Source: Escherichia phage MET-P1-301
Length of the DNA stretch: 64,000 nucleotides
Direction: 5' to 3' (one strand)
Sequence record: PV700625
Position numbers and translations under genes: made by a program. Numbering within the stretch: the stretch's first letter is position 1; every line of letters begins with the position of its first letter. Of the stretch, positions 667 through 9,447 are shown one piece after another. The notes beneath the pieces were generated by a model. It searched no databases, had not been told where the DNA came from, and saw nothing but the letters and a program-made list of their open reading frames with translations.

Positions 667-2872
667 CTTGCAGTGCAGACTTACCTACACCGATGCGACT
701 GTTAAGGTAGTACATGGTTTTCATACCTACCGAGTTAGCGTAAATCATGTATTTTAAAGCTTGAGCCAATGATACCTTCTTAGCTTTTGCGTAGTCAACA
801 TAGAAATCTGAAGAGATAGCTTGACCAGTGAACTTTTGGACAATTGCATAACAATCAATCAGGTCAAAGGTGTCAATATCCCAAGCAATTTCATAGACAT
901 ACTTCAACTCTTCATAATCTGGAACAATAAACAGTACGTTACCAGTTGCAGACTTTTTAGTTAAAATAAAGTCACGAATTGGGTACAAGCCATTTGTCGT
1001 ATTAGTTGCTAGTGAAGAACTCTCATTAGGCATATAAGCCTCAAGTACAGAGTTTCGGATGCCACCATTTTCTTTGATACGTTGTGCTAAGTCATCCCAA
1101 TCATATCTTAGTTTTGCATCATGCTTCTCATCAATCTTCTTGTTAGCTGTCTTCGGAGGAACCCATCCTTCAGGGTACTTAGTGAACTTCATGTATTCAG
1201 GTACACCACGCTCTTTAGCAAGTCTTAGAGAAGCTTCATGCAGATAGTAAGAGTGCATCTCTGCAAGTTCGTGAAGCTTTGTCTTACCAGCCCTTGAAGA
1301 GTAGTTCACGTAGTTCTTCGCAAGGTAATGAGCCACATTTGTAAGGCCAATGCCAACAGAGCGACGCTTCTGAACATGGTTACGCATCGACGGATACGGA
1401 TAATCCATAAGGTCAATAACGGAGTCAACCATTGCAAGAGCATAATAAGCAACGTCAGCGTATTCATCTTCTGAAATTCTCCCTGCAACCAAACTAGCTA
1501 GGAAGCAAAGAGCTACCTCACCATCCTCCTTCACAGCATCGTCTCTGTAAAGGTCTGTCTCTTTCTCAAAGCCGTACACTGGCAACACAATTTCCATGCA
1601 AAGATTTGACATCTTCAAAGGCTCTTTAAATGGTGTATGTGTGTTTGCATTGTTTGTGAAGAATGGGTACACACGACCTGTTGCATAACGCTGCTGGATA
1701 AACAGTTTAGCAATTTCACGAGCCTTTACTCGTCTGTGCTTAACACCTGCATGTACTGCGTGACCAACTGCCATAGCAAACTCATCAGCAGATGCGGTGT
1801 AGAACATATCATAAAGTTTTGGTGCATCTTTGTAAGAGAATAGCAACCAATCTGTATCATACTGAACACACTGCCAGAAATAATCATTTGTACCAAATGA
1901 GTAGTCCATCTCGTTAATACGTTTAGAAGGAACCGTTGTAGGGTGCTTCAAACGTAGTAAATCTTCAATCTGCGGGTCTAGAGCGGTGTAGAAGTTGTTA
2001 GCTGAACCACCACGACTCTTCTGTTTATTTGCCTCTACAGATGAACGTACAAGCTTGTAATAAGGTAGTTTACCCATGTGTTCGATAGTGTTTTGACGGA
2101 TACCATCACCAATAGTACGGGTCTCCATCAGCATACCAATACCAGCTTGCTTCGTAGTCATATCATAAGCAACCTTTGCAGCAATACCAAGTGACTCAGC
2201 AGTATCATTTGCCTTAATCAAACAGCATGACGCATAACCTGACTTAGTAGCACGTAAACCATTCAGATAAGGTGTAGGAGCATTAATCTTCAGGTCAGAT
2301 AGGTAAGTGTACAGCTTAATAACATCTTGCAGTCTACGGTGCTTTGGTTGCTTCTCAAAGGCTTTCATAGCCATACCCATAAACATAAATTGTGGTGACT
2401 CAAAAAGTCTTCCCGTTTTAATATCACGGATACCATATTTATCTCTGAACTGTTTCAACACTGCATAGCCGTAAGAGATATCTTTTGAGTGCACGATGTA
2501 GCCTTGCAGGTATTCAAGTTCTTCCTGTGAATAATCCATCTTCTCCCAAAGTCCTGCTCTCTCCATATTTTTAACGAAGGTAACCAGCGTAGGAACCTTA
2601 GTAAAGCCTCCAAAGGCTTCTTTGTAGATAATACCCAGAAGTAGCCGTCCAGCCATGTCTGAGTACTCTTGAGTTTGTTTATCAACACAAACATCAATCA
2701 TAGCTTGGTGCATCTCTTTTGTAGTGCAACCTTCATAGACACGCTTCATAGCTTCCATAGTGACTTCTGACCAGATAATTCCACGCTTATCTGCCCATGA
2801 TGCCCACTTATTCAGTCTTTCTGGGTCAAAGCTTACTACTGTACCGTTTGATTTTTTAATTGTCTTAATCAT
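638..2872 (-). CDS. nrdA: ribonucleotide reductase class Ia alpha subunit
   Basis: Intact 744-aa ORF; C-terminal cysteine pair (...YCEGCGV) typical of class I RNR large subunit; adjacent to nrdB. Confidence 0.9.
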   Translation of the reverse strand: MIKTIKKSNGTVVSFDPERLNKWASWADKRGIIWSEVTMEAMKRVYEGCTTKEMHQAMIDVCVDKQTQEYSDMAGRLLLGIIYKEAFGGFTKVPTLVTFVKNMERAGLWEKMDYSQEELEYLQGYIVHSKDISYGYAVLKQFRDKYGIRDIKTGRLFESPQFMFMGMAMKAFEKQPKHRRLQDVIKLYTYLSDLKINAPTPYLNGLRATKSGYASCCLIKANDTAESLGIAAKVAYDMTTKQAGIGMLMETRTIGDGIRQNTIEHMGKLPYYKLVRSSVEANKQKSRGGSANNFYTALDPQIEDLLRLKHPTTVPSKRINEMDYSFGTNDYFWQCVQYDTDWLLFSYKDAPKLYDMFYTASADEFAMAVGHAVHAGVKHRRVKAREIAKLFIQQRYATGRVYPFFTNNANTHTPFKEPLKMSNLCMEIVLPVYGFEKETDLYRDDAVKEDGEVALCFLASLVAGRISEDEYADVAYYALAMVDSVIDLMDYPYPSMRNHVQKRRSVGIGLTNVAHYLAKNYVNYSSRAGKTKLHELAEMHSYYLHEASLRLAKERGVPEYMKFTKYPEGWVPPKTANKKIDEKHDAKLRYDWDDLAQRIKENGGIRNSVLEAYMPNESSSLATNTTNGLYPIRDFILTKKSATGNVLFIVPDYEELKYVYEIAWDIDTFDLIDCYAIVQKFTGQAISSDFYVDYAKAKKVSLAQALKYMIYANSVGMKTMYYLNSRIGVGKSALQDAYCEGCGV

Positions 2873-2918
2873 TTTTGAATCCTACAGATGAGAAGAGCCT
2901 CCGAAGAGGCTCCCTAGT

Positions 2919-3251
2919 TTAAATCTTGAAAATTTGCTCATTCTGCCACATATCGTAAAACTTATCACTTACCTTTGTGACTGACGAAGTGTGCATACAA
3001 TTGACGAACCATGATATATTACTATTCATAATTATTTCAAGCTGTTTTGTGACATCCACATTCATGTCTTCAACAACGTAATTACCTCGCATCTTGCAAA
3101 CAACTCTTCCAAACAAGATTGCACTTCTGCCTCTTCGGTCGTCACAGTACATAACTGTGTCTCCGTGCTTAACATCTTGTCCGATACTATCAACACCTAA
3201 TTTAGCACCTGAGATAATGTCATCATAAGATAACTTTTTTGCTTTAGACAC
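2919..3251 (-). CDS. hypothetical protein
   Basis: 110-aa ORF in minus-strand operon. Confidence 0.45.
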   Translation of the reverse strand: MSKAKKLSYDDIISGAKLGVDSIGQDVKHGDTVMYCDDRRGRSAILFGRVVCKMRGNYVVEDMNVDVTKQLEIIMNSNISWFVNCMHTSSVTKVSDKFYDMWQNEQIFKI

Positions 3252-3576
3252 GGTATTTCTCCAAGTTTCTTTTTAGATATAACCAACCATAGTCAGTTCT
3301 TTCTACACCCATGAAGAGTGGAGCCATTACAACTTTACCAAAAGTATTCCTGTGTTGACAGATTTCAAAAGAATACTCTTTCTCAATATCAATCCCGTAT
3401 TTGTACAGGACTGCTTTTAAAACTTGTTCATTATCCAGAAGTGTATCTGGAGTCTCACCATACTTCTCAAGTAACGGGTCATTCATAAACACCGTCATAG
3501 AAATATTGTAGTTTGAGAAGTGGCTCTTCTGAGCCACACCTTCTTTATTAATGTTCTGTGAATCCATTATAACCAA
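3244..3576 (-). CDS. hypothetical protein
   Basis: 110-aa ORF, overlapping start/stop with neighbours. Confidence 0.45.
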   Translation of the reverse strand: MVIMDSQNINKEGVAQKSHFSNYNISMTVFMNDPLLEKYGETPDTLLDNEQVLKAVLYKYGIDIEKEYSFEICQHRNTFGKVVMAPLFMGVERTDYGWLYLKRNLEKYRV

Positions 3577-4544: not shown

Positions 4545-5042
4545 TTATCAAGCACAATTTGCTTTCATTACCTTATGGATTCTTTTTTCAGCATCTTCAT
4601 AAGTTTCTTTAGTAATAAACTTAATTGCTGCAATATTGGCATTGTAGAAGAGTCTGAGCTTAGAGTCAATCCTTTTGTCATTACATCGAATTTATGTTGA
4701 AGGTTTGCTTCACCATAAACTAGCCCACCTTTTGTGCAGTAGGTCTGGATAATGTAAAAGTCAAAAATTCTTTTCCAAAGCTCTCAATATCTTTTTAATA
4801 TACTCAGAAGAAGTCTCATAAGTCATCCAATCGCTTTCCTTAGTGACTACCTTCTTCCGAGTCTTCCCAGCAACTTTTCTTTTGGTCACACTATTAAGCT
4901 GTTTCTTTCCGATATAATATTGCCCAGTCTTCTTACAGTGTACTAAATAGACAAAGCCAAAATGTTTAGTGGGGTCAACTTTCCCACATAAAGATACCCA
5001 ATGACCGTAGGTAGGGCAATTGCCAAATCCTTTAATCTTCAT
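4545..5042 (-). CDS. GIY-YIG family homing endonuclease (apparently frameshifted)
   Basis: ORF 4761-5042 contains ...HFGFVYLVHCKKTGQYYIGKK... (GIY...YIG spacing); a second frame 4545-4760 reads as protein after a T-run near 4755. Confidence 0.5.
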
Positions 5043-5135
5043 TCATACACGGCTCCCAATTATATTTCTTGAAAGAGAAATTATCTTTTGGATTTCTCTC
5101 TTGATAAGCTATCCAGAAATGCTGTTCCATTAGCT

Positions 5136-6071
5136 CTAACGGTGTCTTTGTAACAGTCTGTCCATCCCATGATACATAGGTGTAAGAGTCTTTTTAGCAT
5201 AGAGTTCATAGATAGCATCAAGACACTCTTTGTAGGTCTCTTTACCATCTAAAGCATTCATCACAGCTACTTTACCAGCACCTTTAAGTCCGAAGTAGTT
5301 GTCTGCATTATCTCCAGCAACAGCCTGATAGCACAAGAACTTAAAACCTACACCAACTGTTTTTGCAGCTTTTGGTTTTGATTTGATAGGACAATCCCAG
5401 ATATCACCAACATTATTATCAGCAATAAAGATTAGTGGTGATTTTTCATAAGTCATATCAATACAATAAGTTCCTTCAGCTTGTCGAAGGTCTTTGTCAA
5501 TACTCATAAGAGCAGCCTTCTTACCCATCTTTTCAGCTTTAGCAATTACGATTGAATCGGCTTCGAATCCTCCCTTTAAGAGTTTGAACTCTGGTCTTGA
5601 CAGAAGGTATTCACGACAAGCGACTAAGTGTGTTGGTGTGACAGCATCTTTACGGTTACCTTGATATTGGTGCTCAAGACCTTTAATGTCTTTATGTTTA
5701 TGCACACCTTTCTCTGTTAAATAACCTACCCAAGTTCTCTCTTTACCAACCACCTTAAGCCATTCCTGAAGAACCTGTTGAGTAGCCATGATAGCTTCTT
5801 TCTCACTCTTAGCTTCTTTCCAAGTCTGTCTTTCCCATTCATCTTCATCAAATGTCAGTCCAAGTTCTTCCACAAGGATTCTCTGGTCTGCTAACCATCT
5901 TGCAGCATCTTTCGCATTATCAAATGGCTCAGATTCTTCTGCTGTGAGTTTATTGACATATTTATATTTTGCTTTCTCAACTACACAAGCACCTTTATAG
6001 GCAATACTGTCAGAGTCAATAAAGACATGTGTAACTGAATCGGGAAGCTTTGTTAATGTGTACTTCTCCAT
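5136..6071 (-). CDS. 5-prime-3-prime exonuclease / flap endonuclease (T4 RNase H, T5 D15-like)
   Basis: 311 aa; N-terminal FIDSDSIAYK, central FEADSIVIAKAEK...SIDKDL and H3TH-like GDNADNYFGLKGAGKVA match FEN-family motifs. Confidence 0.75.
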   Translation of the reverse strand: MEKYTLTKLPDSVTHVFIDSDSIAYKGACVVEKAKYKYVNKLTAEESEPFDNAKDAARWLADQRILVEELGLTFDEDEWERQTWKEAKSEKEAIMATQQVLQEWLKVVGKERTWVGYLTEKGVHKHKDIKGLEHQYQGNRKDAVTPTHLVACREYLLSRPEFKLLKGGFEADSIVIAKAEKMGKKAALMSIDKDLRQAEGTYCIDMTYEKSPLIFIADNNVGDIWDCPIKSKPKAAKTVGVGFKFLCYQAVAGDNADNYFGLKGAGKVAVMNALDGKETYKECLDAIYELYAKKTLTPMYHGMDRLLQRHR

Positions 6072-7461: not shown

Positions 7462-9447
7462 TCACTCAGTTTCGAATGGGCAGTCATCTGCATCCTCACT
7501 TAATACAGGTGGAATCGTTGAGCTTTGACGCTGCTCTTCAGTATAGACTTCACCAGTCTCACGGTCAAACACTTCATCCTCATAATGTGGCAAAGAGTCA
7601 TCGTAATGGTCTTCAGCTTCGCCAATACCAAACTGTTGGCGAATATTTTCTGCTGCACCATCAATGTCAACCCCACAACCAGATGCTTTGATGAGGCGTC
7701 CTGTATCTGGATTGTACCAAGTATGACCAGCAATACCAGTTGACTTACCATGACGACGACATTTAGTTAACTTGATTTTTGTCAAGTTTTTCTTAACAGG
7801 GTCTGGGTCAACCTTGTTACGCATTAACAGAATGTTGTTCATAGAAATCTGGAAATACGCACCAGAGCCTTTAATATCCTCTTCAGAGATATCTCCACCT
7901 TCAGAGTTGGCTTTCTGACCACCTGCGCTCTTACGAACGTGACAGACGTTCACCTGTGCATACTGGTAGCGTTTGCAACGGCGCAATAGCTCAGACAAAA
8001 CTTCCTCTTCATCCGTATCTGAACGTGACAGAGCCAACGTAATAGGGTCAAGAATAATAATCTTACAGTCTAAACTGTTAACAAGATAATCAACAAATTC
8101 CAGCAGGTTATCTTGGTCAATTGCCCCTTGATGGTCTACGATGTGGATACGACGACCTTTAGACAGTTCTGCATGTGCTTCCTTCAATTCATCCCAATCA
8201 CGTTCGTCATAAGGAATCTCAGAAATCTGCTTGCTGAGGTGGATTGCACAGAGCATCTCCATCAACTCTTCATAGGTATCTTCGACCGGAATTACACCAA
8301 TATTGTAATCGGTATCTTTCCAAGCAGTATAAATCATTTCACGAGTGTATGCTGATTTACCCACTGAAGATGGTGCTGCCAGAGTTGTAATCTCACCTAA
8401 ACCATAACCACCGTAAGTCAGTCTGTTTAAATCCCCGAAAGATTCTGGGAAAGGAATCAATGGAATCTGACCACGATTCTTCATTGCCTCAAAACCATCT
8501 GCGAAGTTCTTGATACCAGCAGGGCAGTAACGGGGCGCATTGTAGATACGCTGCTTAAACCCTTCAAGAACTGTGTCTTTCTCTTTATAGAACTTTGTCC
8601 ACCATTCGTTAAGGTCTTTTACACCTTCTGGATACTGGAATAAACGAACCTTCTCAATAGGTAGGATACCAGCAGCCTCTTTGGTAGCTTTAGCACCTGC
8701 TTCATCATTATCAAAGCACAAGTAAATCTCATCAAATGATGTGATGTACTGATAGTTGTCTTTGATAGACTTAATGTTTGCACCTGACGGAACAGATACG
8801 TGACAGTAATTCTTACGACGAGACTTATCTTTAATCGCCAAAGAAGTCATGTAGATTGCTGTCGCACATTCCATCTCACCTTCCCAGATGAATAGACGGT
8901 TACCACCTTCTGGAGCAATCCATGAGCCGAACATTGCCAGTTCACCTTTAATGTCTCCAACACCACCAGAAAAGTCTTTTAGTTTACCACGTAGGTGCTC
9001 TTTTGGATGGTCTTCTGGGTAACGGTGACGAACACGGTAGCCAACATGTTCTAGCTTACCATCTTCATTACGTTTGTAAGTTGGATAGAAGTGCGCATCA
9101 ATTTCACCGTCACTGTCAATGTCAACCTTGATACCTAAGCGTTCAAGGACTTTTGCAGGAATCTTCCTATCTTTCAAGTCCATTGCTTCTAGGTTTTCTT
9201 TTACATCGTCTAAATCCATTCCACGGAAAGTACGGTTTTTATTGTCTGAACCAGTAGAATAAGTGCTCACGATTTGCCCTTTATCAAAATCCCACTCTGG
9301 GAAACCCTTGTTACAACTAAAGCAAGTCATTGAATAAGAATCATCGTCATGATGATAGATTGAACCAGCATCTGATGAACCACAACGTGGACATGCGCAA
9401 TGACCAACAAACTGACCAGCCTCTTTCAATTTACGACCTTTAGACAT
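7462..9447 (-). CDS. DNA primase-helicase (T7 gp4-like)
   Basis: N-terminal Cys4 zinc ribbon (CACPRCGSSD...CFSCNKG), then DnaB-type Walker A GLGEITTLAAPSSVGKS; AGGTG RBS before ATG at 9447. Confidence 0.9.
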   Translation of the reverse strand: MSKGRKLKEAGQFVGHCACPRCGSSDAGSIYHHDDDSYSMTCFSCNKGFPEWDFDKGQIVSTYSTGSDNKNRTFRGMDLDDVKENLEAMDLKDRKIPAKVLERLGIKVDIDSDGEIDAHFYPTYKRNEDGKLEHVGYRVRHRYPEDHPKEHLRGKLKDFSGGVGDIKGELAMFGSWIAPEGGNRLFIWEGEMECATAIYMTSLAIKDKSRRKNYCHVSVPSGANIKSIKDNYQYITSFDEIYLCFDNDEAGAKATKEAAGILPIEKVRLFQYPEGVKDLNEWWTKFYKEKDTVLEGFKQRIYNAPRYCPAGIKNFADGFEAMKNRGQIPLIPFPESFGDLNRLTYGGYGLGEITTLAAPSSVGKSAYTREMIYTAWKDTDYNIGVIPVEDTYEELMEMLCAIHLSKQISEIPYDERDWDELKEAHAELSKGRRIHIVDHQGAIDQDNLLEFVDYLVNSLDCKIIILDPITLALSRSDTDEEEVLSELLRRCKRYQYAQVNVCHVRKSAGGQKANSEGGDISEEDIKGSGAYFQISMNNILLMRNKVDPDPVKKNLTKIKLTKCRRHGKSTGIAGHTWYNPDTGRLIKASGCGVDIDGAAENIRQQFGIGEAEDHYDDSLPHYEDEVFDRETGEVYTEEQRQSSTIPPVLSEDADDCPFETE

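Follow-up and report, generated by a model that had tools for sequence, protein, structure and literature searches.

The question raised by this locus is whether a short GIY-YIG reading frame in Escherichia phage MET-P1-301 (sequence record PV700625) belongs to a mobile homing endonuclease that has been broken by frameshifts, or to a resident nuclease gene of the phage. The whole stretch of DNA that was analysed, here called the window, is 64,000 nucleotides long. The features of the locus, in window coordinates, are as follows.

5032..6071, minus strand: 5'-3' exonuclease gene, the upstream neighbour; 346 aa in relatives, frame-split in the window
5032..5042, minus strand: 11 nt shared by the exonuclease gene, at its end (...MNED*), and the GIY-YIG gene, at its ATG; read from the sequence
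4548..5042, minus strand: SegE-type GIY-YIG nuclease gene, 165 aa, interrupted by three 1-nt deletions
4761..5042, minus strand: 93-aa open reading frame as it is read in the window, with an ATG start
4902..4961, minus strand: codons 28-47, FGFVYLVHCKKTGQYYIGKK, with the GIY-like (FVY, Tyr32) and YIG (Tyr43-Ile-Gly45) motifs, read from the sequence
4792..4796: T5 run, T6 in all relatives examined; first 1-nt deletion, after codon 84
4763..4767: A5 run, A6 in all relatives examined; second 1-nt deletion
4673..4676: T4 run, T5 in all relatives examined; third 1-nt deletion, by which the original frame is restored

The orthologue in Felixounavirus genomes is an intact gene of 498 nt, and the three deletions in the window copy were called from an alignment with three relatives. 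The reading frame of the GIY-YIG gene changes in the order A, C, B and A again, through the pieces 5042..4791, 4791..4765, 4765..4673 and 4673..4545. These four pieces were joined to give the repaired 165-aa protein. In the 93-aa open reading frame, residues 1-84 are genuine; the final nine (ILRALEKNF) are out-of-frame read-through. A second in-frame stop (4547..4545) directly follows the gene, and the boundaries of 4545-5042 given in the preliminary description were essentially exact (gene at 5042..4548, plus this second stop). A frameshift at a T-run had also been suspected there. The frame is indeed lost at homopolymer runs, but the gene carries three 1-nt deletions rather than one, and they appear to belong to an artefact that extends across the whole window.

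The start codon of the GIY-YIG gene lies inside the exonuclease gene. The same 11-nt overlap is annotated in TP1, tootiki, Ro111lw, Bas63 and Michonne; in M7 and Wc4 the two genes share 8 nt. A GGGAG sequence is located about 10 nt upstream of the GIY-YIG ATG; overlap and GGGAG together suggest a layout typical of translational coupling within an operon. The scan for promoters and terminators around the gene stayed at chance level, and no promoter-like site above chance was found directly upstream. The exonuclease gene matches PHROG 107 'exonuclease' (E=2.5e-63); in the window it has a T6 to T5 deletion at about 5191-5195, and its tblastn pieces (residues 1-294 and 294-346) lie in different frames. 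The position among genes of nucleotide metabolism that had been described for the reading frame was confirmed, since the gene adjoins the 5'-3' exonuclease gene and lies about 1.7 kb from nrdA.

The product of the locus is a member of the domain-only SegE-type GIY-YIG nuclease family. The GIY-YIG call had been made from the motif FGFVYLV...TGQYYIGKK, which is encoded on the minus strand at 4961..4902, and a profile search returned the expected match. The 93-aa open reading frame alone matched Pfam PF19835 (SegE_GIY-YIG) with E=3.1e-15 (56.9 bits; cut-off 25), and the repaired protein matched it end to end with E=7.3e-23 (81.6 bits; same cut-off); these scores put the match far beyond chance. 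The profile spans residues 22-138 of the 165 residues in the repaired protein. The Bas63 orthologue scored 97.4 bits against the same profile, and the repaired protein matched PHROG 447 with E=2.4e-40. No further Pfam domain was found in the 165-aa protein, and neither a NUMOD nor an HTH module was detected.

A family search against 1.84 billion representatives revealed 2271 relatives at E<=1e-3, with a bimodal length distribution: one group has about 130-170 aa, the other about 230-350 aa. PF19835 was matched by all 150 top family representatives; NUMOD3 was found in 39 of these 150, and I-HmuI-NUMOD or HTH domains in others, always in the longer members. The long members thus have the classic Seg-type homing-endonuclease architecture, whereas the window protein is the nuclease domain alone. 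Conservation was computed over 150 family representatives at no more than 50% identity. The residues Y43, G45, K47, W72, Y75, S78, E112 and N135 are invariant in 150 of 150 representatives; G29, F30 and Y32 are conserved in at least 90% of them, and W15 is also nearly invariant. Both tyrosines of the GIY-YIG motif are present (F30-V31-Y32 and Y43-I44-G45), as are E112 and N135 in the window copy. From their order and helix position, E112 and N135 are the putative counterparts of I-TevI E75 and N90. A counterpart of I-TevI R27 was sought by alignment. None of the Arg positions proved invariant; K47 is, and an RK motif in the hairpin described below is conserved. K47, R62 and K64 would be candidates for the counterpart.

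The AlphaFold model built from the 150-sequence alignment has a pLDDT of 93.1 and a pTM of 0.84. It replaced an earlier model from 11 sequences, which was poor at residues 106-147 and gave weak Foldseek matches. In the protein, the nuclease fold is accompanied by a short YGHW strand at the N-terminus, an inserted basic beta-hairpin and a single helix at the C-terminus; in the model the hairpin covers residues 50-69 and contains the very basic segment KRKVAGKTRKKVV. The best PDB match is the catalytic domain of I-TevI, 1LN0 (Foldseek probability 0.98, TM 0.67 on the target, rmsd 3.1 A), and the best matches among viral structures are SegE-like GIY-YIG proteins. When the family profiles were run against the sequences in the PDB, no meaningful match was obtained.

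The phage had been taken for a T-even-like one, which did not hold. The region is 95-97% identical at the nucleotide level to more than 100 Felixounavirus genomes (Felix O1-like, Ounavirinae), and the surrounding 25-kb stretch is 93-95% identical to the best of them; the window is a Felixounavirus sequence. Orthologues of the GIY-YIG gene are already annotated. They include Felix O1 ORF107 (NP_944980.1), TP1 gp057 (YP_009606873.1), tootiki_118 (QHR75891.1) and bas63_0057 (QXV81748.1). Their labels vary, from 'GIY-YIG homing endonuclease' (tootiki, QHR75891.1) to 'NAD synthetase' and 'hypothetical protein'. The repaired protein has 92-99% amino acid identity within Felixounavirus, including 98.8% to the Bas63 and allfine orthologues (tblastn), and about 85% to Mooglevirus. 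The annotated Ounavirinae orthologues share the 165-aa length, the neighbours and the exonuclease overlap with the window gene; the window copy differs from them by three missing homopolymer bases and two substitutions (E21K and Y103C).

Two records with unexpected names were also observed. GU169904.1 ('Staphylococcus phage SA1') and MG065664.1 ('Campylobacter phage A132') contain near-identical Felixounavirus sequence (92-97% over the region), and they are probably chimeric or contaminated records.

By blastn the gene was detected in 297 phage records; tblastn, at 60% amino acid identity or more, gave 296. The denominator is 299 records with an Ounavirinae-level large terminase, some of which are partial genomes. 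In about 297 of the 299 it always lies between the 5'-3' exonuclease gene and the MazG-like gene. The gene order is primase/helicase, small genes, a 285-aa protein, exonuclease, GIY-YIG, an 82-aa protein and the MazG-like gene, followed by two or three small genes and then nrdA (nrdD in P778 and Wc4). This order is the same in Felixounavirus, Mooglevirus, Kolesnikvirus, Yersinia phage P778 and Pectobacterium phage Wc4. Between genera, the GIY-YIG protein keeps 59-61% amino acid identity and is better conserved than its neighbours, the exonuclease (54-55%) and the MazG-like protein (39-41%). The dN/dS of the GIY-YIG gene is 0.02-0.03 for TP1 and Bas63 (Felixounavirus) against Michonne (Mooglevirus), with dS saturated. 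These comparisons indicate a core gene, vertically inherited in Ounavirinae, that has diverged in parallel with the genes around it and is subject to strong purifying selection.

The alternative that survives best, and which is still quite unlikely, is an active freestanding homing endonuclease, as the preliminary description had proposed. Such an enzyme would cut a specific site in related phages without the gene and spread by gene conversion. The protein shares its Pfam family with the nuclease domain of T4 SegE, its longer relatives have the classic architecture of GIY-YIG plus NUMOD3 or HTH, and the basic beta-hairpin seen in the model (KRKVAGKTRKKVV) could supply some DNA binding. However, a DNA-recognition domain (NUMOD, HTH or zinc finger) is absent from the 165-aa protein. 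No natural 'empty' allele is apparent among the Ounavirinae records, and a gene that all relatives already carry would find no further site for homing. The start codon within the exonuclease gene speaks against an independent insertion, and the divergence parallels that of the neighbours, with a dN/dS of about 0.03. The gene lacks three hallmarks of a freestanding homing endonuclease, because it has no targeting domain, is not sporadic and was not inserted independently. The proposed comparison of synteny with related phages, once run, placed the gene at the same position in practically every Ounavirinae record, which argues against mobility; near-universal presence, the exonuclease overlap and purifying selection point the same way. 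It had moreover been counted as a 'second' homing endonuclease, whereas a six-frame profile search of the window found only one SegE-type GIY-YIG locus.

The site next to the gene is a different matter. An HNH homing endonuclease gene is located precisely between the exonuclease and GIY-YIG genes in Felix O1, VSe102, SeKF_63, Sf14, Mijalis and others. It lies at 2477-3001 of the compared Felix O1 stretch, and its counterpart in the window is the junction at 5032-5042. The insertion is absent from the window, TP1 and Bas63, and the relatives that carry it are a minority; the pattern indicates a genuine sporadic mobile-gene site. Such a hot spot beside the GIY-YIG gene may also be counted in favour of homing. 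Members of the GIY-YIG family occur in varied contexts elsewhere. For example, they lie immediately beside nrd genes in unrelated T4-like phages, with a long form next to nrdA in Aeromonas phage 65 (2492-3388 of the compared stretch) and a short form downstream of nrdB in cyanophage Bellamy (2926-3369 of the compared stretch). Stenotrophomonas phage Moby has another member, which is intergenic. The place of denA in T4 is taken in cyanophages by the short form. These contexts would fit an origin of the family from homing endonucleases; the nrd-adjacent members would fit a link to nucleotide metabolism and an ancestral homing preference for nrd loci equally well. A homing ancestry is part of the reading preferred here, that of a resident domain-only nuclease.

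A role in anti-defence or host takeover, such as the degradation of host immune nucleic acid like retron msDNA, was also considered and is very unlikely as the main function. Bas63 gp77, which was described with a GIY-YIG catalytic domain, is reported to counter retron Ec67 (PhageMaP, PMC11482910), and this shows that small nucleases in the genus can have such roles. However, the orthologue of the window gene in Bas63 is bas63_0057, not gene 77, and bas63_0077 is unrelated to the family (no BLASTP match; hhalign probability 0.1%). Gp77 was accordingly rejected both as this gene and as a paralogue of it. Moreover, accessory anti-defence genes are usually variable; whereas the GIY-YIG gene is core and lies in a replication operon. 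Some observations on gene 77 itself were made. No Pfam GIY-YIG match was found in bas63_0077 and its neighbours; the only named match of bas63_0077 (7949-8464 of the compared stretch) was a weak one to an HNH-endonuclease PHROG (E=4e-4), and its counterpart in TP1 lies outside the part of the genome that the window covers.

The reading of a resident nuclease gene requires an explanation for its broken frame. When the window was compared with phage TP1, 78 single-base deletions were counted, and 59 of them fall in runs that are 4-6 nt long in TP1; only 4 insertions were found in such runs. By rough scaling, the loss affects about 2% of the 4-nt runs, about 12% of the 5-nt runs and nearly half of the 6-nt runs. 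Runs of 6 nt are 3.6-fold depleted in the window relative to TP1, and runs of 7 nt or more do not occur in it. The genes for the portal protein, TerL, the tape measure protein (three shifts), DNA polymerase, exonuclease and baseplate hub are all frame-split, and the major capsid and MazG-like genes have lost their first residues to a 1-nt homopolymer deletion. The deletion sites in these genes are:

40452: major capsid
44148: portal
45036: large terminase
14279: DNA polymerase
33021, 34127 and 34734: tape measure
4275: MazG-like
5191: exonuclease

The two neighbours of the GIY-YIG gene in this list, the MazG-like and exonuclease genes, thus have one more deletion of the homopolymer type each. 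The pieces of the disrupted genes are still 96-100% identical to their relatives at the amino acid level; for the major capsid, portal, large terminase, tape measure and DNA polymerase genes the figure is 99-100%. Metagenomic contigs that encode an identical NrdA (up to 98.3% nucleotide identity to the window) contain intact genes of 165, 346 and 251 aa. Over 6.9 kb of alignment between these contigs and the window, the only indels are seven 1-nt homopolymer contractions in the window. The losses throughout the window and the intact genes of the closest contigs together indicate that the frameshifts of the GIY-YIG gene are sequence artefacts, most readily explained as homopolymer under-calls of sequencing or assembly and not as biology. 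A real phage with this genome would then make the intact 165-aa protein. Programmed frameshifting was rejected, because the three shifts belong to about 59 events of the same type across the window. As a separate observation from the TP1 comparison, about 545 nt of the tRNA region (50212-50756) have no counterpart in that phage. This segment contains a 90-aa Cys-rich open reading frame (50477..50749, minus strand) with a weak double-zinc-ribbon match (Pfam DZR, E=0.002, below threshold).

A true pseudogene with real frameshift mutations in this phage, for example a decaying homing endonuclease, is by the same evidence most improbable. As written, the window gives only a 93-aa product, and split or truncated versions exist in other entries, namely the fragments of phage EC6 and a 93-aa 'partial' NCBI protein. 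However, losses of the same kind have disrupted the genes for the capsid, portal, terminase, tape measure and DNA polymerase as well. The exact window sequence could not be a viable phage, because essential genes are broken by the homopolymer losses. The four fragments of the GIY-YIG gene still match the family profile or the relatives, with only two amino acid changes and no other decay visible; the three deletions total 3 nt, and the closest relatives are intact. The exact 93-aa open reading frame was looked up in public assemblies and was not found there.

The entries with split copies deserve a remark of their own. The 93-aa 'partial' copy of the gene is on an 88,424-nt contig filed under Methanobrevibacter gottschalkii; presumably, an archaeal assembly was contaminated there with Felixounavirus DNA. 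In Escherichia phage EC6 the gene appears as two UniProt fragments (K4IC63 and K4I3J2). The homopolymer runs in the GIY-YIG gene seem to be recurrent error sites. For users of this record, any 'frameshift', 'pseudogene' or other finding in the window that depends on open reading frames should be distrusted and checked against homopolymer under-calls.

The name NAD synthetase, carried by RefSeq and PHROG 447, has practically no chance of describing the protein: the database label is all that favours it, neither Pfam (E<=10) nor NCBIfam (E<=1) yielded a match to an NAD-synthase family, and the protein has the fold and the conserved residues of GIY-YIG. The label occurs in hundreds of Ounavirinae and cyanophage records (for example at 1550-2047 of one compared stretch and at 2926-3369 of the Bellamy stretch), and looks like a propagated misannotation. 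'NAD synthetase' is thus a label without any support, and 'homing endonuclease' reads too much into a core protein made up of no more than the nuclease domain.

The explanation favoured here, with a probability of roughly 80%, is that the locus encodes a core, domain-only nuclease of the early operon, which derives from a homing endonuclease gene, is coupled to the exonuclease, and has frameshifts that are artefactual. Most likely the product is a DNA nuclease that requires Mg and has become a fixed part of the early operon for replication and nucleotide metabolism. The ancestor would have been a Seg-type homing endonuclease; its targeting domain may have been lost, or never have been present, before the gene became fixed. 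The enzyme would be a Mg2+-dependent DNA endonuclease that uses Tyr32 and Tyr43, Glu112 as the metal ligand, and Asn135. DNA binding might be helped by the basic hairpin, and perhaps by oligomerisation as in other stand-alone GIY-YIG enzymes. The gene is probably translationally coupled to the 5'-3' exonuclease. The nuclease may make nicks or breaks for the exonuclease to enlarge, and it would not promote its own spread.

What such a pair would do in the infected cell can be suggested more tentatively. Gene order and gene overlap, and these only, hint at an endonuclease-exonuclease partnership in host-DNA breakdown with nucleotide salvage, in recombination-dependent replication, or in both; this assignment is possible rather than probable. 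Felix O1 was expected to hydrolyse host DNA, and no DNase gene was recognised in it besides the 5'-exonuclease, gene 105 (Whichard et al. 2010, PMC3185647). Gene 105 is the gene directly upstream of the GIY-YIG gene. In a bolder and somewhat doubtful version, the domesticated descendant of a homing endonuclease would be the 'missing' early DNase and the obligatory partner of the coupled exonuclease, with the hairpin replacing the lost DNA-binding domain. If this were true, T4-like cyanophages might use their equally short relatives next to nrdAB for the same task. A difficulty for the role is how a non-specific nuclease would spare phage DNA, since no modification is known for DNA of the Felix O1 type. 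An anti-defence role and residual homing activity are also possible. Felix O1-like phages are widely used for biocontrol of Salmonella and E. coli, and the GIY-YIG gene is a reasonable and cheap candidate for their early DNase.

The protein was also compared with known systems. In T7, the gp3 endonuclease and the gp6 5'-3' exonuclease are expressed together early, and act in host-DNA breakdown and in the processing of recombination intermediates. The likeness is an analogy only; the fold of gp3 is different, and homology is not claimed. T4 endonuclease II (DenA) is a short, domain-only GIY-YIG nuclease encoded beside nrdB, and offers a functional analogy for host-DNA degradation. It shows no detectable sequence or profile relationship to the window protein beyond the GIY-YIG strand, and was not among the top 50 structural matches to the model; a closer relationship was rejected on the hhalign probability of 0.2%. 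I-TevI is encoded in an intron and also comprises a linker, a zinc finger and an HTH domain that binds DNA. Its catalytic domain is only 13% identical to the window protein, with a weak hhalign match (E=0.0036). T4 SegE (205 aa) is the founding member of PF19835. The nuclease domains of SegE and the window protein are homologous (hhalign probability 96.6%, E=7e-10; SegE residues 2-110), and the two proteins share the YIGK, Y-x-x-S-S, G-x-x-x-F-x-F-x-I and YYN motifs. SegE has an extra C-terminal half of about 95 aa, which is absent from the window protein; whereas the 19-aa basic hairpin of the window protein is absent from SegE. SegE occurs sporadically in T-even phages and has been shown by experiment to be a site-specific homing endonuclease; in contrast, the window gene is core in its subfamily.
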